Shown: piece by piece, positions 3,394 to 63,687 of the stretch
Layout of the letters: every line of letters starts with the position of its first letter
Numbering within the stretch: the first letter of the stretch is position 1
Notes under the pieces: model-generated
What the model was told of the DNA's origin: nothing
The model's input: the letters and a program-made list of their open reading frames with translations, nothing else
The model's database searches: none
DNA from: Candidatus Omnitrophota bacterium
Lineage (GTDB): Bacteria; Omnitrophota; Gorgyraeia; Pluralincolimonadales; Pluralincolimonadaceae
Length of the DNA: 64,000 nt
Assembly: GCA_028716565.1 (NCBI GenBank)
Contig: JAQUPL010000001.1
Coordinates: 147,545-211,544, forward strand
Direction of reading: 5' to 3'
Position numbers and translations under genes: made by a program

Positions 3394-4419
3394 ATGAAAA
3401 GGTTGGGAATACTTACCGGCGGCGGGGACTGTCCGGGTTTGAACCCCGTCATCAGGGCGGCGGTCAAGAAGGCTTATGCGGAAGGATATGAAGTCATAGG
3501 TTTTAAGAACGGCTGGAAAGGCCTCATAGAAGGGGATGTGATACCTCTGGACCTGCGTTCGGTATCCGGGATCCTCCCGAAAGGCGGCACGATATTAGGC
3601 ACTTCAAGGACCAACCCCTACAAGCAGGAAGGAGCTGTCCAGAAAGTAAAAGATAATTTCAAAAAGTTCGAGCTCGACGCCCTGATAGCCATAGGCGGCG
3701 AGGACACTCTCGGCGTCGCAAATAAACTTGTGAAAGAAGGCCTGAAGGCTGTGGGCGTAGCGAAGACTATAGATAATGACCTCAACGAGACCGATTTTAC
3801 GTTCGGTTTCGATACCGCGGTGAATATAGTAATGGAATGCATCGACAGGCTGCACACTACGGCGGAGAGCCACAACAGGATCATGATTGCTGAAGTCATG
3901 GGCCGCCATGCCGGCTGGATCGCGATGTACGCGGGTATCGCCGGGGGCGCGGACGTGATATTGATCCCTGAGATCCCGATCAATATCGACGATGTATGCG
4001 CTATAATCAAGAAACGCCACGAGCGCGGCAAGAATTTCTCGATCGTCGTAGTCGCGGAAGGCGCAAAGTTCGGGGATGAGGAGATACTCCAGACCGAGAA
4101 GCTCGATGAGTTCGGGCATGTAAGGCTGGGAGGGATCGGCCAGCGCCTCGGCGAATTAATAGAGAAGAAGACGGGTTTTGAGACGAGGGTTACCGTGCTC
4201 GGGCACATCCAGCGCGGCGGTTCTCCTACGGCGTTTGACAGGGTCCTGGGCACCAGGTTTGGCGTCAAGGCCGTTGAACTTATCATGCAGGGAAAATTCG
4301 GTTATATGGCCAGCCTCCAGGGAAACAAAATAAAGGAAGTCCCGATCGATAAAGCCGTCGGCACCTTAAAGACGGTCGACAAGGATTTCTACGATATGGC
4401 AAAGACATTCTTCGGTTGA
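3394..4419 (+). CDS. pfk: 6-phosphofructokinase, probably pyrophosphate-dependent type
   Basis: 341 aa. GILTGGGDCPGLN, then IGGEDTLG (D at the G104-equivalent position) and GVAKTIDND (K at the G124-equivalent), as in PPi-PFKs. RBS GGAGGA upstream. Confidence 0.85.
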   Translation: MKRLGILTGGGDCPGLNPVIRAAVKKAYAEGYEVIGFKNGWKGLIEGDVIPLDLRSVSGILPKGGTILGTSRTNPYKQEGAVQKVKDNFKKFELDALIAIGGEDTLGVANKLVKEGLKAVGVAKTIDNDLNETDFTFGFDTAVNIVMECIDRLHTTAESHNRIMIAEVMGRHAGWIAMYAGIAGGADVILIPEIPINIDDVCAIIKKRHERGKNFSIVVVAEGAKFGDEEILQTEKLDEFGHVRLGGIGQRLGELIEKKTGFETRVTVLGHIQRGGSPTAFDRVLGTRFGVKAVELIMQGKFGYMASLQGNKIKEVPIDKAVGTLKTVDKDFYDMAKTFFG

Positions 4420-8846: not shown

Positions 8847-8922
8847 GCGGGTGTAGTTCAGTTGGTAGAACGTCAGCTTCCCAAGCTGAATATCGTGGGT
8901 TCGAGTCCCATCACCCGCTCCA
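8847..8922 (+). tRNA. tRNA-Gly (anticodon CCC)
   Basis: GCGGGTGTAGTTCAGTTGGTAGAAC...anticodon stem TCAGC/GCTGA with loop TTCCCAA...GGTTCGAGTCC T-arm...CACCCGC-T-CCA. CCA is encoded. Confidence 0.85.
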
Positions 8923-21777: not shown

Positions 21778-22140
21778 ATGGGCTGGGGCGGAATCGATAC
21801 CAGAAGAGGCGCGCGGGTCGTCTTCGAATGCGTGGTCATCGTCAAGAAAAAAGAGACCAGCCTTGTCTTCAGGACCCAGACCGAGAACATCTCTACCGGC
21901 GGGATCTGTGTCATACTCGAGAAAGGGTTATTGAGGAATACCCCGGTTGACGTAGAAATTTTTCTCGCCGATGACCCTGTCCCGTTAGCATGCGGCGGCA
22001 AAGTCGCATGGGTCATGCGGCGCAACGAATACGCAAAGAAGAAACCCTCGCAGTTTGATACGGGAATAGAGTTTACCGATATCACGGACGAGGATAAAGG
22101 GCGTATAAAGCGGATCATCGAGGAGTTGCTGGAATATTAG
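21778..22140 (+). CDS. stand-alone PilZ-domain protein (c-di-GMP receptor candidate)
   Basis: 120 aa. RRGAR (RxxxR) and NISTGG (D/NxSxxG) PilZ motifs. Confidence 0.65.
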   Translation: MGWGGIDTRRGARVVFECVVIVKKKETSLVFRTQTENISTGGICVILEKGLLRNTPVDVEIFLADDPVPLACGGKVAWVMRRNEYAKKKPSQFDTGIEFTDITDEDKGRIKRIIEELLEY

Positions 22141-22226
22141 CTTGACTTTTGTTATTGAGGGGTAGATAATAATAACAATAACTGAAAAAGGAGGGCGAGA
22201 ACTGATCTTAAAAACAAGATAGGGGG

Positions 22227-22616
22227 GTGAGGGGGATGAGTGAGAAACGGAAATTCATGCGTTTTGATGTAGCCGTTGAAGTGGAGTATATGGTTCCCGG
22301 AAATGGCGCCCCGATAGAAGGCATCTCCGTTACGCGCAACCTGAGCCGCGAAGGGATGCAGATCGCAGTAAACAGCAAACTCGTTCCGGGCACTGAATTA
22401 GAGATCAAGTTGAGGATCCCCGAGGATATGGCTCCTGTGTACGCGAAAGGAGACCTTGTCTGGGTGGAAAAATCAGAGATCAAGACCGAATCATCCGCCG
22501 GCGTGAAATTCTCCCAGATGTCGCCTTTTGACAGGAACCGCATACTGGACCACGTTTATAAAGAATGGGTGGAAGAGCAGATCGGCCAGAACGCAGCACA
22601 ACCGCGGAACAAGTAA
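22227..22616 (+). CDS. stand-alone PilZ-domain protein
   Basis: 129 aa. KRKFMRFD (RxxxR-like) and NLSREGMQI motifs. Confidence 0.6.
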   Translation: MRGMSEKRKFMRFDVAVEVEYMVPGNGAPIEGISVTRNLSREGMQIAVNSKLVPGTELEIKLRIPEDMAPVYAKGDLVWVEKSEIKTESSAGVKFSQMSPFDRNRILDHVYKEWVEEQIGQNAAQPRNK

Positions 22617-22627
22617 AATATAAACTT

Positions 22628-23008
22628 ATGTCAAGGCCAAAGTCCGAAAGAAGAAAACATCCGCGTGTCGATGAGAAAGTGCCTCTAAAGATAAAAGATG
22701 AAGGCTTCGACACGATAAGCGTAACAAAAAATATCAGTTGTTCAGGCGTTTTTTGCCAGGTTGACGGTTATTTCCCGCTTTTATCAAAAGTCAAGATCGT
22801 GCTCCTGCTCCCTTCCGAAGAAAAATCAAAGGCGCATCCCATACATATAGAGGGCGTTGTCGTCCGTTCGGAACCGGTAAAATCCCCGTCGAATCCCAAT
22901 TGCAGGAACATAGGCGTCTTCTTCAACAGGATAAAGAAACAGGATATGCTGAAGATAACCGGCTATATCAATTCCATCCTGGCCAAGAGGATGGTAATAA
23001 TAAATTAA
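22628..23008 (+). CDS. stand-alone PilZ-domain protein
   Basis: ATG at 22628 chosen, 12 nt after the upstream stop; the ORF-track start at 22565 overlaps the previous gene. RRKHPRVD and NISCSGVF motifs. Confidence 0.55.
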   Translation: MSRPKSERRKHPRVDEKVPLKIKDEGFDTISVTKNISCSGVFCQVDGYFPLLSKVKIVLLLPSEEKSKAHPIHIEGVVVRSEPVKSPSNPNCRNIGVFFNRIKKQDMLKITGYINSILAKRMVIIN

Positions 23009-23012
23009 AACT

Positions 23013-23597
23013 TTGTTGTACGGAATCCTGCGGCCGATCGGGTGGTTGATCTGCAGGATTTTTTTCTGCCTGAAAGTCAAAGGCGTAGAGAATATCCCTG
23101 CCGAAGGCAAAGTCATAATAGCCGCCAATCACTCCAGCTACCTGGATCCCGTCGCGATCGCAGCCGTTGTCCCCAGGCAGATAAAATGGATAGTCCGGAA
23201 AGACGTCTATGATGTTTGGTGGCTGAGGCCTTTGTTCGCTTCGACAGGCATGATAAGGGAGAACGGTTCGGTCGGGAAGGCCATAGACCTGCTCGGGAAA
23301 GGCGAGGCTTTAGGAGTATTCCCGGAGGGGTCCAGGAGTTACGACGGAAGGCTCGGCGCGGGCAGGAGAGGCGCGGCCATTATGGCGTTAAGATCGGGCG
23401 CACCGGTCGTACCGTGCGCGGTCAAGGGCGCTTTCAAGGCCTATCCGCGCAATTCCGTATTGCCGAGGCCCTGTCCCGTAGAAATAATAATAGGAAAAGC
23501 TATCGAACCGGGTAGGATGGATGAGCCGGACGACCGGACGGTAGATTCTTTACTGGCAGGGATAATGACGGCGATCCAGTCGCTGATGGGGCAATAG
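23013..23597 (+). CDS. plsC: 1-acyl-sn-glycerol-3-phosphate acyltransferase
   Basis: 194 aa. ANHSSYLDP (HX4D) and FPEGSRS motifs of the PlsC family. Confidence 0.8.
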   Translation: MLYGILRPIGWLICRIFFCLKVKGVENIPAEGKVIIAANHSSYLDPVAIAAVVPRQIKWIVRKDVYDVWWLRPLFASTGMIRENGSVGKAIDLLGKGEALGVFPEGSRSYDGRLGAGRRGAAIMALRSGAPVVPCAVKGAFKAYPRNSVLPRPCPVEIIIGKAIEPGRMDEPDDRTVDSLLAGIMTAIQSLMGQ

Positions 23598-23612
23598 TAG
23601 TATTGACTTTGC

Positions 23613-23640
23613 CTGCGGCCGTGATATAATTGTATCGGGA
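23613..23640 (+). promoter_or_regulatory. sigma-70-type promoter (TTGACT-16-TATAAT)
   Basis: TTGACT at 23613-23618, 16-nt spacer, TATAAT at 23635-23640. Lies in the plsC to next-gene spacer. Confidence 0.55.
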
Positions 23641-23647
23641 AAAGATA

Positions 23648-23837
23648 TCTACCCTATGCGTGTTAGGATTGGCGCAATGATCAGCAAAGTCGTATAAGGG
23701 GTTTGGAGTTCGGGTACCTTTCGAGGTATTCGACAGGACCCCACCTTGAATAAAGGGTCAAGCGGCCAAGCCCTCACGGTAGGGTTGAGGACTTATTCAC
23801 GGCCTAGGGTAAACCTAGGCCTTTTTTATGAATAGAA
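23648..23837 (+). ncRNA. candidate structured RNA of about 190 nt (6S-like extended hairpin, or riboswitch-type leader of the downstream operon)
   Basis: Bounded by the promoter above and an intrinsic terminator (GGCCTAGGGTAAACCTAGGCC + T6 at 23811-23837). No ORF inside. Long imperfect helix between 23661-23683 and 23774-23797 (ACCCUA/UAGGGU, CGUG/CACG, GGAUUGGC/GCCAAGCC). Internal unpaired region and apical UUCG hairpin (GUACCU-UUCG-AGGUAU). Confidence 0.45.
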
Positions 23838-23846
23838 GGAGTTCAA

Positions 23847-24629
23847 ATGAGGATAACCAAGGAGAAGGTCTACTTCCACGTGCCTTACAGGATACTCTTA
23901 AGCAGCCTCGACTGGATAGCGCAGATCGGGGTGAATTGCGAGATATACGCCAACGGAGAGGCCCTGGACGATTATACCGATGATGAGATAGATAAAATAA
24001 ACGGCGTCTTTGAAAGCCGCGGGATAAAAAAAATAGTGCACGGCCCGTTCCTGGACCTTAATCCCGGAAGCACGGATCCCAAGATAAGGGACCTGACCTA
24101 CGGACGTTTTATATCGGCGCTTGATTTTTGCGAGAAACTGAGGGCCAACCATATCGTATTGCACACCGGGCTCGACCCCATCTTTTACAAAGGCGCCTCG
24201 CGCTTTTTCCTCGACCTCAGCATCCCGGTCTGGAAGGAGGCGATGAAAGCCGCCGAATCAAGGAAGATAGTCATAGCCATAGAAAATTCCGTAGACCCGG
24301 ATCCCGAAGTGGTTGTGGGGCTGCTGAAAGGGATCAACTCCCCGTCTGTGGAGGCGTGCTTTGACGCCGGCCATTATTACGCGTTCGGAAAGATGTCCCC
24401 GTTCGACGCCTTGAAATGGTACCCGGACGGGTCGATAGGCGAATTGCATCTTTCCGACAACAAAGGCGATTTCGATACCCATCTGCCGCTTGGGGACGGT
24501 GACCTGGATTTCAAGAGGCTGCTGATCGAGGCCTGGAAGAAAGGCAGGGAGCCGATCATAACTTCCGAGCCCCATTGCAAGGAACATATAGAAAGAAACC
24601 TCAAATACCTGCTTTCACTGGGCCTTTAG
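23847..24629 (+). CDS. sugar phosphate isomerase/epimerase (xylose-isomerase-like TIM barrel)
   Basis: 260 aa. IVLHTGL...IAIENS...ACFDAGHYYAF...ELHLSDN metal-binding pattern of the AP-endonuclease-2/xylose-isomerase-like fold. RBS AGGAG. Confidence 0.65.
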   Translation: MRITKEKVYFHVPYRILLSSLDWIAQIGVNCEIYANGEALDDYTDDEIDKINGVFESRGIKKIVHGPFLDLNPGSTDPKIRDLTYGRFISALDFCEKLRANHIVLHTGLDPIFYKGASRFFLDLSIPVWKEAMKAAESRKIVIAIENSVDPDPEVVVGLLKGINSPSVEACFDAGHYYAFGKMSPFDALKWYPDGSIGELHLSDNKGDFDTHLPLGDGDLDFKRLLIEAWKKGREPIITSEPHCKEHIERNLKYLLSLGL

Positions 24630-24681
24630 AAGAGAGGCTTGGCCTTTTGAATAGCGGTATGTTATAATAAAAAACGGAGGG

Positions 24682-25245
24682 ATGAAGATGGCTAAAAAAG
24701 AGATCAAAGGCGATGTGGCGCTCTTCCCGTTGCCGGTCGTCCTTGTTACCTGCGTCGGAAAGAACGGCAAGCCGAATATCATAACTTTGGCGTGGGCCGG
24801 CGTCGTCTGCTCGGAACCGCCGATGGTCTCCATCTCTATAAGGCCTCACCGCCACTCCCACCCGCTGATAAAAGAAACGGGGGAATTTACGGTGAATATC
24901 CCCACTTCCGATATAATGAAAGAGACCGATATCTGCGGGATGGTTTCCGGGCGGGACACGGATAAGTTTGCCCTGACGAAGCTTACCCCGGAACCGGCCA
25001 CGCACGTCAAGTCCCCGCTCATAAAAGAGTGCCCTGTAAACCTCGAATGCAAAGTGAAGAGCGCGATGCTTCTCGGAACGCACGAGGTGTTCCTGGCCGA
25101 GGTCGTCGCCGTCCACATAGACGAGTCGGTGATGACGGAGACGGGGAGGATCGATTACGCCAAGGCCAAACCTTTCTCGTATAATTGGGGCGAATACTGG
25201 AGCGTTAAAGAGAAAATAGGACACTACGGATGCTCGAAAAAATAA
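24682..25245 (+). CDS. flavin reductase-like FMN-binding domain protein
   Basis: 187 aa. ALFPLPVVLVT...NIITLAWAGVVCSEPPMVSIS matches the flavin reductase like domain. Confidence 0.7.
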   Translation: MKMAKKEIKGDVALFPLPVVLVTCVGKNGKPNIITLAWAGVVCSEPPMVSISIRPHRHSHPLIKETGEFTVNIPTSDIMKETDICGMVSGRDTDKFALTKLTPEPATHVKSPLIKECPVNLECKVKSAMLLGTHEVFLAEVVAVHIDESVMTETGRIDYAKAKPFSYNWGEYWSVKEKIGHYGCSKK

Positions 25246-26099
25246 TATTCCAAATCGACAGGATCTCCGAGAAGGCCAGCGTTATCTTTGATTTTTTCGG
25301 CGCGCGGACAAAGGCCCTCTTCTTCGGGCATTTCGGGACAAGGCTTACGTACAGGCGCGAGATGGTGGCCGCGCTAATGGTCCTGGCGGCCGTCCTTATC
25401 TTCTTCGCCCCCCGGGGCTGGCTTATCTGGCTGGGGATCGCGGCGATGATGGCCGGCATGTTCCTCTGGCTCATAATCATCTTCTCCTGGACCCTCGATC
25501 CGTTGATAGATTACAAGATACGCATCCATAAGATAAAAAGCTGGGGTGAGAGGCTGCTTAAATACCTGAGCGGCGAATTCAAGGATCTGGAGAACAGGCA
25601 CCATATGGAGGCATACGCCTGGGGCAAACTCGCTTACTTCGAGGAGCTAAAGAGCGAGGTTGATAATTTCTCGAAGACCAACCTGCTCCAGAAGTTCCTG
25701 GGGAGGTTCTTTTCGACCTTCATGTTCCTGATACTCGGTTACGCCTTCATATATTACGGCCTCCATAAGATAACAAATTCAAGTTTCGTTTCGGCCGCGG
25801 AACTGGGCGGGTTCGGCCGTTTCGGCTCGATAGCGGATTTTATATATTACAGCGCGATCACTATCGCCACAGTCGGATACGGGGACATCTATCCGGTACA
25901 TATCCTGGCAAAGTTCTTCGTCTTGACTGAAGTCCTCTACGGCGCGCTCCTGATCATCTTCCTGATAGCATCTTTTACCGCTATATCTATTCCTCTTACC
26001 TCGGAAAGGCAGAAGGCGCTGCTCGGCGAGATCGAGAAGGAGATAAAGAACATCGAAAAGGTCTTTGCCGATATCAAACAATTAAGCGGAGGCGACTGA
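25230..26099 (+). CDS. potassium channel (two-TM pore domain with TVGYGD selectivity filter)
   Basis: 289 aa. N-terminal TM helices and pore loop ITIATVGYGDIYPV. Confidence 0.7.
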   Translation: MLEKIIFQIDRISEKASVIFDFFGARTKALFFGHFGTRLTYRREMVAALMVLAAVLIFFAPRGWLIWLGIAAMMAGMFLWLIIIFSWTLDPLIDYKIRIHKIKSWGERLLKYLSGEFKDLENRHHMEAYAWGKLAYFEELKSEVDNFSKTNLLQKFLGRFFSTFMFLILGYAFIYYGLHKITNSSFVSAAELGGFGRFGSIADFIYYSAITIATVGYGDIYPVHILAKFFVLTEVLYGALLIIFLIASFTAISIPLTSERQKALLGEIEKEIKNIEKVFADIKQLSGGD

Positions 26100-26626
26100 T
26101 GCCGCCTCTCTTTAATAAGGCCTTTGCCGTAATAGCGGCCTCTCTATTCCTGGCTCTTCCGTCCTCCGGACAGGCCGAAGGGGAGGGGGTCCCCGAAAAA
26201 GAATTGGAATTGGGAAATGTGATGGTGACCCTTTACGCCTTAGGAGGGAGCGCGGCCGGCCAAAAGACTTACGGGGAAGAGGTATATTTGGCAAAAGGCA
26301 CACCCCGCCAGGCCCTGATCACACTTAAACAGATGCTGCTTGAAGGCAATAGGCCTTCCCGGGCATTTAAAATGAAGGACCAGATCGAGGTCATTGTTTT
26401 CAGGGGAGCCTTTTTAAAATTAAGTAAGATAGCCGTAAAGAAAGTAGTTTTAAAAGATTCAAGCATCGAGGTATATGCGGAATATAAGGACCTTCCCGGC
26501 ACTGATATCGCTTCCCAGCCCGCGGCTATAATCCCCGTTGGACAGCTCCCCCCAGGCAAGTATACGGTTATTTTATTCGTAGATAATAACTTACGTAAAA
26601 AAACCGAGTTCAGCGTCTCCCGTTAG
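26099..26626 (+). CDS. hypothetical exported protein
   Basis: 175 aa. Signal peptide, no motif. Start overlaps the upstream stop (ATGA). Confidence 0.4.
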   Translation: MPPLFNKAFAVIAASLFLALPSSGQAEGEGVPEKELELGNVMVTLYALGGSAAGQKTYGEEVYLAKGTPRQALITLKQMLLEGNRPSRAFKMKDQIEVIVFRGAFLKLSKIAVKKVVLKDSSIEVYAEYKDLPGTDIASQPAAIIPVGQLPPGKYTVILFVDNNLRKKTEFSVSR

Positions 26627-29561: not shown

Positions 29562-29644
29562 TATACAAAATGATAAAGCGGCGATTTGAGGCGTATTGCT
29601 CCGCTTAATAAATGTGCTAAAAAGCAAACAAAGATTATTTGAGG

Positions 29645-29675
29645 CCCGTGCTTTTTAGCGCGGGTTTTTTGTTTT
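29645..29675 (+). terminator. intrinsic terminator/attenuator within metY leader
   Basis: CCCGTGCT-TTTT-AGCGCGGG hairpin followed by TTTTTTGTTTT, 45 nt upstream of the metY start. Confidence 0.6.
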
Positions 29676-29677
29676 AA

Positions 29678-31018
<1,341 letters not shown>

Positions 31019-31025
31019 GGTTAAA

Positions 31026-32156
31026 ATGACAGTCGAGAACAGCGTAGGCACAGTAAAAATAAAATACTTCACTTTCGCGGAACCCCCGCGCGAACTGAAA
31101 CTGGAGTCCGGCCAGGCCCTCGGCCCCATCACTTTGGCTTATGAGACCTATGGCACCCTGAACAGCCGGAAGAGCAACGCGATACTGATAGAGCACGCTC
31201 TCTCAGGCGACGCGCATGCCGCGGGTTTCCACGAAGGGGATAAGGACCCGGGCTGGTGGGATTCTATGATAGGTCCGGGCAAGGCCTTTGATACAACGAA
31301 ATATTTCGTGATCTGTTCCAATGTCATCGGCGGATGCAAGGGGAGCACAGGCCCTTCTTCGGTCAACCCGAAGACGGGGAAGCCCTACGCGCTGGAATTC
31401 CCGCTGATAACGATATCCGATATGGTCCATGCCCAGAGCCATTTGATAGGCCATCTCGGCATAGACAAGCTGCTTTGCGTGGTAGGCGGCTCGATGGGCG
31501 GGATGCAGACACTCCAATGGGTCGCGTCTTACCCTGACAGGGTGCGCTCTGCCATACCCATTGCTTCGGCGCTGAAACATTCCCCGCAGCAGATAGCTTT
31601 TAACGAGGTCGGAAGGCAGGCGGTAATGGCTGACCCGGAGTGGAGGGAAGGGGACTATTACGGGCACGGCCAACCCGAGAGGGGCCTGGCAGTCGCGCGC
31701 ATGGTCGGCCACATAACTTACATGAGCGACCAGTCGATGGAAGAGAAGTTCTCGCGCCGGCTTAAAGAGAAGAATTACAGCTTTACGTTCAAGACCGATT
31801 TCGAGGTAGAGGGTTATTTGAGATACAAGGGCGACGCCTTCGTGAAACGCTTTGACGCCAATTCATATCTCTATATAACCAAGGCCCTCGATTATTTCGA
31901 TCTTTCTGACGGTAAGCTTATACGCCAGGGTAAGGCCGTAGATACCCGCTTCCTGGTCATTGCCTTTAAGTCGGACTGGCTCTACCCGTCTTACCAGCTG
32001 CAGGATATCGTGCGCCAGCTTAAGACGAGGCATGTCGACGCCACGTATTGCGAGGTCAAGTCGACTTACGGGCACGACGCGTTCCTTCTCGAGGTTGAGG
32101 AGGAGACGCATTTGATCAGGCACTTTCTTAAAAAAGTATACAAGGAAGGCGAATAA
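31026..32156 (+). CDS. metX: homoserine O-acetyltransferase
   Basis: 376 aa, alpha/beta hydrolase. GGSMGGMQ nucleophile elbow. Typical MetX length and metW neighbour. Confidence 0.9.
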
Positions 32157-39280: not shown

Positions 39281-39354
39281 GAAACCATAAGACAATTAAT
39301 CGGGTCAGAAATATTAATTTATTTCTGAAGGAGAAGTCAATTTGGATGGTCGGG

Positions 39355-39392
39355 CCGCCATCTGTGAAAAAACAGATGGCGGTTTTTGTTTT
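39355..39392 (+). terminator. intrinsic terminator between the promoter above and hflK
   Basis: CCGCCATCTGT-GAAAAA-ACAGATGGCGG hairpin + TTTTTGTTTT. 30 nt upstream of the hflK ATG. Confidence 0.55.
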
Positions 39393-39424: not shown

Positions 39425-40423
39425 ATGGACTGGCAGAACGTCCCTAATCCCGATGAGATAATCGGCATGGGAAGGAAAAGACTGGTTGATTTTTGGAAAT
39501 TTTTGCGATGGTTCATCGTGATATTCATCATTCTTATCGGCATAAAAGGGGTTGTTTACTCTATCGGCCCGGATGAGGTAGGCGTGATCCAGAGATTCGG
39601 CAAGTATATCGGCTTAAGCTCGCCCGGACTGCATGTAAAATTGCCTTTCGAGATAGACAAGGTGACCCCGGTTAAGGTGAAGAAGGTCTTTAAAGAGGAG
39701 TTCGGCTTTAGGACCGTAAAACCGGGAACAAGGACCGACTATAGAAGCGGAGGCAACAAAGACCAGTCCCTGATGCTTACCGGGGATTTGAATATCCTGG
39801 ACGTGCGCTGGATAATCCAATTCAAGATAAAAGACCCCGTTAAGCTGATCTTTGCCACCCGCAACCCTATGGATAACATCGACGATATTTCCGAAGTGGT
39901 GATGCGGCGTTTTGTCGGCGATTATACGGTCGACGAAGTGCTTACCACAAAGCGTGAGGAGATAGACGATCTCGCGCAGCAGGAGATCCAGAAGATCCTG
40001 GATAATTACAACGTGGGGGTCCAGATAGTCACGGTAAAACTGCTGGATGTTAATCCTCCCGAGAAGGTAAAACCGGCTTTCAACGAGGTAAACGAGGCAA
40101 AACAGGAAAAGGAAAAGATGATCAACCAGGCGTGGGAGGCCTACAACAAGGTCATCCCCAAGGCCAGGGGCCAGGCGGAGAAGACCATCCGCGAAGCGGA
40201 AGGTTACGCTACGGATAAGACAAACAGGGCAAAGGGCGAATCGGAACGGTTCCTGATAACATTAAAGGAATATAACAATGCCCCGGAGATAACCAGGAAG
40301 AGGCTATACTTAGAGACCTTAACGGAAGTCCTCCCTAAGGCAAGAGAAAAATATATAATTGATCCAGAGCAGAGGTCGATTCTTCCTATGCTCGACATGA
40401 AAAACAAGGAGGGCCAACGATAA
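39425..40423 (+). CDS. hflK: FtsH protease modulator HflK (SPFH/band-7)
   Basis: 332 aa. N-terminal TM, SPFH domain, HflK-type coiled-coil tail. Followed by hflC with overlapping stop/start (ATGA). Confidence 0.85.
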   Translation: MDWQNVPNPDEIIGMGRKRLVDFWKFLRWFIVIFIILIGIKGVVYSIGPDEVGVIQRFGKYIGLSSPGLHVKLPFEIDKVTPVKVKKVFKEEFGFRTVKPGTRTDYRSGGNKDQSLMLTGDLNILDVRWIIQFKIKDPVKLIFATRNPMDNIDDISEVVMRRFVGDYTVDEVLTTKREEIDDLAQQEIQKILDNYNVGVQIVTVKLLDVNPPEKVKPAFNEVNEAKQEKEKMINQAWEAYNKVIPKARGQAEKTIREAEGYATDKTNRAKGESERFLITLKEYNNAPEITRKRLYLETLTEVLPKAREKYIIDPEQRSILPMLDMKNKEGQR

Positions 40424-41379
40424 TGAAGAAACTGAGTTCCATTATCGCTTTATCTGTAGGAGTATTGGTCCTGGTGATCGCCGCTTTTGCCACCGGGGCT
40501 GTATATATTGTCGATGAAGTGCACCAGGTGGTGATCACGCAATTCGGCAAACCCATAGGAAACCCGATCACCTCCTCGGGGCTGCATCTTAAGAGGCCTT
40601 TTATCCAGACTGCCCATTATTTTGACAAGAGGCTGCTTGATTGGGACGGGGACCCGAACCAGATCCCGACCAGAGATAAGAAGTATATCTGGGTGGATAC
40701 GACCGCGCGATGGAGGATCGTGGATTCCCTGAAATTCCTGCAGTCGGTGGGTAATGAGATCGGCGCCCAGGGCAGGTTGGACGATATCATCAATTCTGCG
40801 ACCAGGGACGTGGTTACCAGCCATCTTTTGGTCGAGGCCGTAAGGGATTCAAACCGCATCCTGGAGACAAAGATCGAAGGAGAAGACCTGATAGTCACGG
40901 ATGAGGCGCTGGAAAGGATAAGTGTCGGCAGGGAACTGCTGGAGAAGGCTATCCTGGACAAGGCGAAGGTCCTCGCCCCGCAGTACGGCATAGAGATAGA
41001 CGATGTGCGCATTAAACGCATAAACTATGTCGAGGACGTGCGCAATAAGGTCTATGACCGCATGATCGCCGAGAGAAAACGCGCCGCCGAGAAATACCGC
41101 TCCGAAGGCCAGGGAAAATCCGCGGAGATCGAAGGGCAGGTGGCCAAAGAGTTAAAGGAGATCTCTTCGGAGGCATACAGGAAAGCCCAGCTTGTAATAG
41201 GTAAAGCCGATGCCGAAGCCGTCAGCATCTACGGCAAGGCCTACAGCCAGGATCCCGGTTTTTATTCATTTCTGAAGACGCTCGAGACGTATAAGGAGAC
41301 CATCGACGGGAATTCAACGGTGATCCTGACCACCGACAGCGATTATTATAAGTACCTTAAAACCCTTGACGAGAAGTAA
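40423..41379 (+). CDS. hflC: FtsH protease modulator HflC
   Basis: 318 aa. SPFH domain; canonical hflK-hflC pair. Confidence 0.85.
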   Translation: MKKLSSIIALSVGVLVLVIAAFATGAVYIVDEVHQVVITQFGKPIGNPITSSGLHLKRPFIQTAHYFDKRLLDWDGDPNQIPTRDKKYIWVDTTARWRIVDSLKFLQSVGNEIGAQGRLDDIINSATRDVVTSHLLVEAVRDSNRILETKIEGEDLIVTDEALERISVGRELLEKAILDKAKVLAPQYGIEIDDVRIKRINYVEDVRNKVYDRMIAERKRAAEKYRSEGQGKSAEIEGQVAKELKEISSEAYRKAQLVIGKADAEAVSIYGKAYSQDPGFYSFLKTLETYKETIDGNSTVILTTDSDYYKYLKTLDEK

Positions 41380-63609: not shown

Positions 63610-63687
63610 CTGGTGGGCCTGAGAGGACTCGAACCTCCCGCACGCGGTTTAGGAAACCGCTGCTCTATCCAGATGAGCTACAGGCCC
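63610..63687 (-). tRNA. tRNA-Arg (anticodon CCT)
   Basis: Reverse complement reads GGGCCTGTAGCTCATCTGGATAGAGCAGCGGTTTCCTAAACCGCGTGCGGGAGGTTCGAGTCCTCTCAGGCCCACCA. Anticodon loop TTCCTAA. CCA is encoded. Confidence 0.85.

Follow-up and report, generated by a model that had tools for sequence, protein, structure and literature searches.

The promoter-to-terminator stretch at positions 23603 to 23827, on the plus strand of the window (the whole 64,000-nucleotide stretch of DNA analyzed here, from a Candidatus Omnitrophota bacterium), is in our assessment a divergent 6S RNA (ssrS-type) gene; we put the probability of this assignment at roughly 75%. 6S RNA, a common small RNA that binds RNA polymerase and restrains it, regulates transcription globally and occurs almost universally; the Omnitrophota are an uncultured phylum of very small cells. 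Our literature search found no paper naming 6S RNA together with Omnitrophota or Omnitrophica. The locus shows a significant end-to-end alignment to the 6S model, a covarying rod and the layout of a stand-alone non-coding gene of about 150 to 200 nt. The original prediction had offered a 6S-like small RNA and a riboswitch-type leader as two possible readings of this region. The 6S-like reading was strengthened by our analysis, in which we located the boundaries of the gene, found its own promoter and terminator to be conserved, observed covariation throughout the rod and obtained a statistical match to the 6S model that was the sole significant Rfam match and recurred in four more lineages.

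All of the features originally described are present in the sequence, but every coordinate given for them was 10 nt too high. The promoter had been called near consensus, and it agrees with the consensus at 11 of 12 positions: the -35 hexamer TTGACT (23603 to 23608) is separated by a 16-nt spacer from TATAAT (23625 to 23630), which together with TG at 23622 to 23623 forms an extended -10 element, TGATATAAT (23622 to 23630). This site, at 23603 to 23630, was the best promoter-like site within 22000 to 26500. Transcription is predicted to start at about G23637, since this residue lies 7 nt from the -10 element, and the transcript would begin with an unpaired A-rich 5′ tail, GGGAAAAGAUA (23637 to 23647), in which AAAAGAUA is conserved in the RNA family. 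The unit ends in an intrinsic terminator (23801 to 23827) with a G+C-rich stem of 8 bp, a GUAAA loop and U6; in the DNA, GGCCTAGG-GTAAA-CCTAGGCC occupies 23801 to 23821 and is followed by T6 at 23822 to 23827. The RNA body measures about 155 nt, and inclusion of the terminator brings this to about 190 nt. The downstream gene has its ribosome-binding site (RBS), AGAAGGAG, at 23834 to 23841 and its ATG at 23847. It is not unusual for 6S genes to have a TATAAT promoter and a rho-independent terminator (PMC8414754).

By BLAST, by a metagenome pattern scan, with a covariance model of the family (R1) and through contigs found via protein homologues, we obtained 17 distinct sequences of this RNA, which all belong to a single Candidatus Omnitrophota clade. 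Homologues of the downstream protein likewise place the window in Candidatus Omnitrophota. The metagenome pattern scan yielded the RNA in 8 of 18 loci, 5 of which duplicate genome loci; the remaining 10 were recognized by neither R1 nor the body-only model R2 and were discarded as chance matches. All 17 homologues carry TTGAYW at the -35 position, a spacer of 16 to 17 nt, a TATAAT-like -10 hexamer (in most of them with TG one base ahead) and a terminator consisting of a hairpin plus a U-run. The strong intrinsic terminator recognized in the window is thus a property of the family, and its stem shows compensatory changes.

The predicted transcript (23637 to 23828) has a minimum free energy of -76 kcal/mol, compared to -55.9 ± 4.6 kcal/mol for 200 dinucleotide shuffles, none of which folded as well (z = -4.4). 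RNAalifold, which had been suggested for homologous regions, returned a rod as the consensus. From the ends inward, this consensus consists of a closing stem of 13 pairs, a downstream helix (P2) of 14 pairs with small interruptions, a bubble of 15 and 13 nt, an upstream helix of 7 bp, an internal loop and a hairpin of 9 to 10 bp. When the sequences were aligned independently with MAFFT, the consensus was essentially unchanged, with differences limited to the pairs at the apical hairpin tip. In the 17-sequence alignment, 96.7% of the cells are paired, and two-sided changes affect 17 pairs, compared to 8.4 ± 1.8 pairs in shuffles; since the sequences had been aligned by fitting them to the model, the structure is somewhat favored. 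When the pairing partners were slid by 1 to 3 columns, only 2 to 6 pairs retained changes on both sides. The original prediction hinged on a structure conserved in homologous loci, and across the 17 sequences the rod does covary. G-U pairs dominate several positions, and one closing-stem pair is U-G in 16 of the 17 sequences. The frequent G-U pairs, together with much weaker scores on the reverse strand, establish that the plus strand is the transcribed one.

The individual parts of the rod differ in how they are conserved. The closing stem pairs its 5′ strand (UCUACCCUAU..GUG, 23648 to 23662) with its 3′ strand (CAC.GUAGGGUUGA, 23775 to 23788), which includes the first UAGGGU; its 13 pairs are formed in 99.1% of the cells over 17 sequences, and the CCCUAU/AUAGGG within it is invariant across the family. 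The long interrupted helix of the original prediction is therefore real, but it lies at these positions and not where it had been placed. In P2, positions 23668 to 23682 pair with 23756 to 23769; 95.3% of the cells are paired, 2 pairs covary through changes on both sides in the 17-sequence alignment, and UGAnCAnCA of the 5′ strand is invariant in the family. The central bubble has a 15-nt 5′ strand, AGCAAAGUCGUAUAA (23683 to 23697), which is unpaired in the RNAalifold consensus, and a 13-nt 3′ strand, ACCUUGAAUAAAG (23743 to 23755), delimited by the same consensus and by the RF00013 alignment. The upstream helix joins GGGGUUU (23698 to 23704) to GGACCCC (23736 to 23742). Its three bubble-side G-C pairs are constant (17, 17 and 16 of 17 sequences, with one gap), and 3 further pairs covary. 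The apical arm (23705 to 23735) comprises an internal loop, GGAGU/CA, and a 10-bp hairpin (23710 to 23719 with 23724 to 23733) whose loop, at 23720 to 23723, is the UUCG cap seen in the original fold. Changes on both sides occur in 8 of the 9 modeled pairs of this arm, and its loop residues GUU and CAG are invariant.

Comparison with Rfam by Infernal, the check that had been proposed for the 6S-like reading, identified 6S RNA (RF00013) as the sole significant match to this RNA. We searched both strands of positions 23550 to 23900 (351 nt) with 4227 Rfam families. RF00013 aligned over model positions 1 to 187 to window positions 23643 to 23794, with 35.9 bits and an E value of 6.5e-6, which by our own linear scaling to the whole 64-kb window becomes about 1e-3; Infernal E values assume random sequence, so long interrupted hairpins may suit hairpin-shaped models. 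The next best family had an E value of 3.4. RF00013 was also the top full-length match in four homologous loci: L001 (39.5 bits, E value of 1.4e-4) and L035 (35.4 bits, E value of 1.5e-3), both from searches of 54 to 61 kb, and L038 (27.4 bits) and L024 (23.1 bits). The RF00013 search gave nothing for the homologues in L010 and L029. Since every score lies under the RF00013 gathering threshold of 46.4 bits, these RNAs fall outside formal Rfam membership, and at the gathering level RF00013 was found neither in the window nor in L001 to L010. Sub-threshold Infernal matches backed by synteny have been accepted as 6S RNA before (PMC8414754).

The RF00013 alignment sets its closing stem, downstream helix, bubble and upstream helix onto the helices predicted by folding, with the 5′ bubble of the model falling on 23683 to 23697. 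The ends of the helices that flank the bubble carry conserved 6S elements: UGAnC with GnUCA(A), GGG with CCC, and CCCACCU. No variation across the family was seen in the U, G, A and C of UGAUC or in the 3′ strand that matches them, and the invariant residues flanking the bubble, GGG/CCC included, align to upper-case consensus positions of RF00013. In a sequence-only comparison with E. coli 6S RNA, window positions 23742 to 23762 (CACCTTGAATAAAGGG-TCAAG) matched nt 130 to 151 with 19 identities in 22 aligned columns. None of 1000 shuffles scored as high for the window and 3 of 300 did for L001, while the other 15 homologues were not significant; this similarity in the 3′ bubble, shared by the window and L001 alone, therefore carries limited weight and is no family trait. 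In the reverse direction, the top match of R1 in an E. coli segment (481 to 673) covered ssrS (484 to 666) with 7.7 bits and a nonsignificant E value of 0.053, and R2 did not find ssrS in that segment. We consider this reverse search uninformative because both models are too narrow (effective sequence numbers of 1.2 to 1.5).

The genes around the RNA follow a recurring order: three PilZ genes, an acyltransferase gene, an optional FAA-hydrolase or MFS gene, the RNA, optional genes for PolX and a CCA-adding enzyme, and then those for a TIM-barrel protein and a flavin reductase. Directly 5′ of the RNA lies an acyltransferase, FAA-hydrolase, MFS or PilZ gene, and directly 3′ either a TIM-barrel gene (12 loci) or PolX (5 loci). 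L003 and L009 are otherwise syntenic, and in both the RNA was absent even with the search filters off; the same genes abut, with 0 to 16 nt between them. The filter-off search also returned nothing in L002, whose sequence is too short to reach the expected position of the RNA. L036 and L037, which harbor more distant TIM-barrel homologues (47% identity), have a different gene context without the RNA. Because the neighbors vary on both sides and the RNA is missing from L003 and L009, we regard the RNA gene as an independent unit.

The downstream protein (23847 to 24629) is a xylose-isomerase-like TIM barrel (Pfam AP_endonuc_2), and the closest solved structures are those of the uncharacterized proteins MJ1311 and TTHB071. 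It had been described as a sugar-phosphate isomerase. The company its gene keeps hints at a role in DNA repair rather than in sugar metabolism: in the relatives L035, L039 and L041, the gene adjoins those for PolX, an HhH-GPD glycosylase, endonuclease V and a CCA-adding enzyme. In L004, the interval from the third PilZ gene to the RNA promoter (3670 to 3750) contains just a short vestige similar to the beginning of the acyltransferase gene, which suggests that this gene was lost in the L004 lineage.

The other possibility raised by the original prediction was a cis-acting leader, in which the 5′ ACCCUA would pair either with the closing-stem UAGGGU or with the copy in the terminator and so set read-through into the downstream genes. 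The motifs are indeed there, with TAGGGT twice, at 23780 to 23785 and 23805 to 23810, and ACCCTA at 23651 to 23656. The terminator ends close to the downstream RBS, as had been noted, although the distance is 7 nt and not 5; the RNA and its flanking genes always share one strand, and 87% of the cells of the alternative helix can pair across the family. However, this 6-bp helix competes with a conserved closing stem of 13 bp, shows 0 compensatory changes and does no better than shuffles. The switch model was tested on alignments of 11 and 17 sequences and rejected, as neither showed covariation. ACCCUA and the terminator UAGGGU are fully complementary in just 5 of the 17 sequences; divergent homologues carry UAGAGU, UAGC or UACGCG in the terminator while ACCCUA stays fixed. 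Neither does the rest of the evidence fit a leader. The RNA folds into a simple rod that has neither a junction of several helices nor a pocket, and none of the riboswitch or leader families matched 23550 to 23900, either at the gathering level or at E values up to 10, in line with the earlier failure to recognize any known class by eye. The gene to be controlled is not constant either, being PolX instead of the TIM barrel in 5 loci, and in L003 and L009 the operon is kept with abutting genes and no RNA. A switch without compensatory change that is fully complementary in so few sequences is not supported, and we regard a cis-acting leader that controls the genes for the TIM barrel, the flavin reductase and the K+ channel as highly improbable.

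An alternative closer to our reading is a lineage-specific small RNA that resembles 6S RNA in shape only, either a base-pairing regulator or an Ms1-like RNA that binds polymerase. All 6S scores are below threshold, L010 and L029 score none at all, the reverse searches were negative or not significant, and the invariant CCCUAU/AUAGGG is unusual for a purely structural stem. Against this stand the consistency with which the 6S model is the top match, end to end, in five lineages, the clustering of conserved residues at the bubble flanks as in 6S RNA, and the lack of a match to any other RNA family. In addition, nearly all bacteria carry 6S RNA (PMC8414754), and the window and L001 to L010 contained no other candidate. 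We consider a mere resemblance in shape unlikely. Somewhat more doubtful still is that the RNA is related to 6S RNA and also acts in cis, by conditional read-through of the terminator, or that it represents a separate, Omnitrophota-specific class of polymerase-binding RNA. The cis role comes into question because the strongest promoter of the area lies directly before a gene block that in related loci is of the DNA-repair type (PolX, HhH-GPD glycosylase, endonuclease V, the TIM-barrel protein and flavin reductase); if it were real, expression of the downstream genes would be coupled to the signals that raise 6S levels. Least probable is a gene for a small protein. The original prediction had noted the absence of an ORF between promoter and terminator, and we found no credible one. 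Just one ORF there reaches 40 aa, a minus-strand ORF of 42 aa with a GTG start (23649 to 23777), and in two contigs gene callers have placed ORFs over the RNA. The promoter and terminator, however, face the plus strand, and the substitutions between homologues are paired compensatory changes. The 42-aa ORF was rejected as coding because the homologues differ by indels of 1 and 2 nt inside it and conserve no reading frame. The public calls over the RNA are hypothetical proteins of 79 aa (L035, 4003 to 4242) and 86 aa (L040, 4029 to 4289) without a Pfam hit, whereas the RNA gene occupies 4035 to 4263 and 4061 to 4255 in these contigs, respectively; both calls are probably false ORFs. At the 3′ end of the RNA gene in L035 (4190 to 4263), the terminator tail seems to be duplicated: GCCATTTTT is present in two copies, and the closing stem is separated from the final U-run by an additional hairpin.

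Several other RNA elements were seen during the Rfam searches. At gathering thresholds, the 64-kb window contains just two tRNAs and an nhaA-I element, all of them away from the 6S locus. The tRNA genes are at 8847 to 8919 on the plus strand (73.9 bits) and at 63614 to 63687 on the minus strand (60.3 bits). The nhaA-I RNA, a riboswitch family in Rfam's classification, is at 39302 to 39363 on the plus strand (38.2 bits; gathering score of 37); a hairpin plus T-run at about 39344 to 39388 overlaps the 3′ hairpin of its aptamer, and it lies upstream of two SPFH/Band 7 genes (39425 to 40423 and 40423 to 41379), not of a cation transporter gene. Weak SAM-II, SAM_alpha and SAM-V matches (19 to 20 bits; gathering scores of 36 to 44) were obtained at 29568 to 29641 on the plus strand, followed by a terminator-like hairpin at about 29643 to 29672. 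Such SAM-type matches occupy the same intergenic position in three genomes: the window, L033 (12274 to 12345) and L038 (10102 to 10176). Those in the window and in L033 are just upstream of a Cys_Met_Meta_PP gene (29720 to 31018 in the window), and the one in L038 is upstream of an alpha/beta hydrolase gene like that at 31026 to 32156 of the window. The genes behind these matches look like methionine synthesis genes (metY and metX), and 29568 to 29641 and its counterparts may be putative divergent SAM-binding riboswitches with a terminator.

If the locus encodes a 6S RNA, its polymerase binding, the synthesis of a product RNA and its physiological role may be modeled on characterized 6S RNAs. 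The strong housekeeping promoter would drive a transcript of about 190 nt ending at its own intrinsic terminator. The rod would imitate an open promoter and sit in the active site of RNA polymerase bound to the primary sigma factor, lowering housekeeping transcription when nutrients are scarce. Upon the return of nucleoside triphosphates, the polymerase would use the 5′ strand of the bubble, along with the helix next to it, as the template for a short product RNA; making this product would open the downstream helix and free the enzyme. The predicted product RNA is 5′-GCUGAUCAUUGCGC, templated from C23685, and the predicted template is the P2 5′ strand (23668 to 23682) together with C23685. This C is invariant and has an A immediately 3′; an A in this position has been noted at known start sites of product RNAs (PMC8414754). 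We looked for pairings that might accompany the release. No bubble-collapse helix was obvious by eye in the window sequence, and CUUGA could pair with UCAAG in the window. When the 14-nt predicted template was blocked in silico, a hairpin formed in the 3′ bubble of L001 and L006 to L008 and not in the others, the window included; it is not conserved in L010, L029, L033, L035 and L038.

Since the family scores below the Rfam cut-off, routine annotation skips this RNA gene. Inclusion of the 17 sequences in the 6S seed could allow annotation pipelines to find 6S RNA in Omnitrophota, and the family would provide a naturally short-armed 6S RNA for comparison with engineered minimal variants. Beyond this, it would be an ordinary gene.

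Compared with known systems, the RNA shows clear differences from the E. coli gene. E. coli ssrS is directly upstream of the 5-formyltetrahydrofolate cyclo-ligase gene and is co-transcribed with it, whereas the gene described here has no such synteny and possesses an intrinsic terminator of its own. Its body is also shorter (about 155 nt versus 183 nt), which reflects a much reduced apical arm of about 45 nt; Aquifex aeolicus 6S RNA, too, is short. Minimal 6S versions with short arms still work, and a short apical arm does not destroy 6S function (PMC8876501), and since these minimal B. subtilis 6S-1 variants function, the short arm seen here is compatible with function. Unlike these variants and A. 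aeolicus 6S RNA, however, the present family does not conserve a 3′-bubble hairpin throughout. Ms1 is also a structured RNA akin to 6S RNA in shape that binds RNA polymerase (PMC9130861), as our RNA may by analogy. Ms1 differs in that it binds the core enzyme and not the holoenzyme and was identified in Actinobacteria, while the sole significant Rfam match here is 6S RNA. In the literature, 6S RNA is described as a rod measuring about 200 nt in which a central bubble separates two imperfect helical arms (PMC8876501), and the anatomy seen here fits this description. Like E. coli ssrS, the RNA of the window has a rod with a closing stem, a central bubble flanked by G-C pairs and an apical arm, a UGAnC/GnUCA downstream helix and a 3′ bubble strand, CACCUUGAA..AAGGG.UCAAG, close to nt 130 to 151. 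As with 6S RNA (SsrS), it is specified by an independent gene behind a strong housekeeping promoter.
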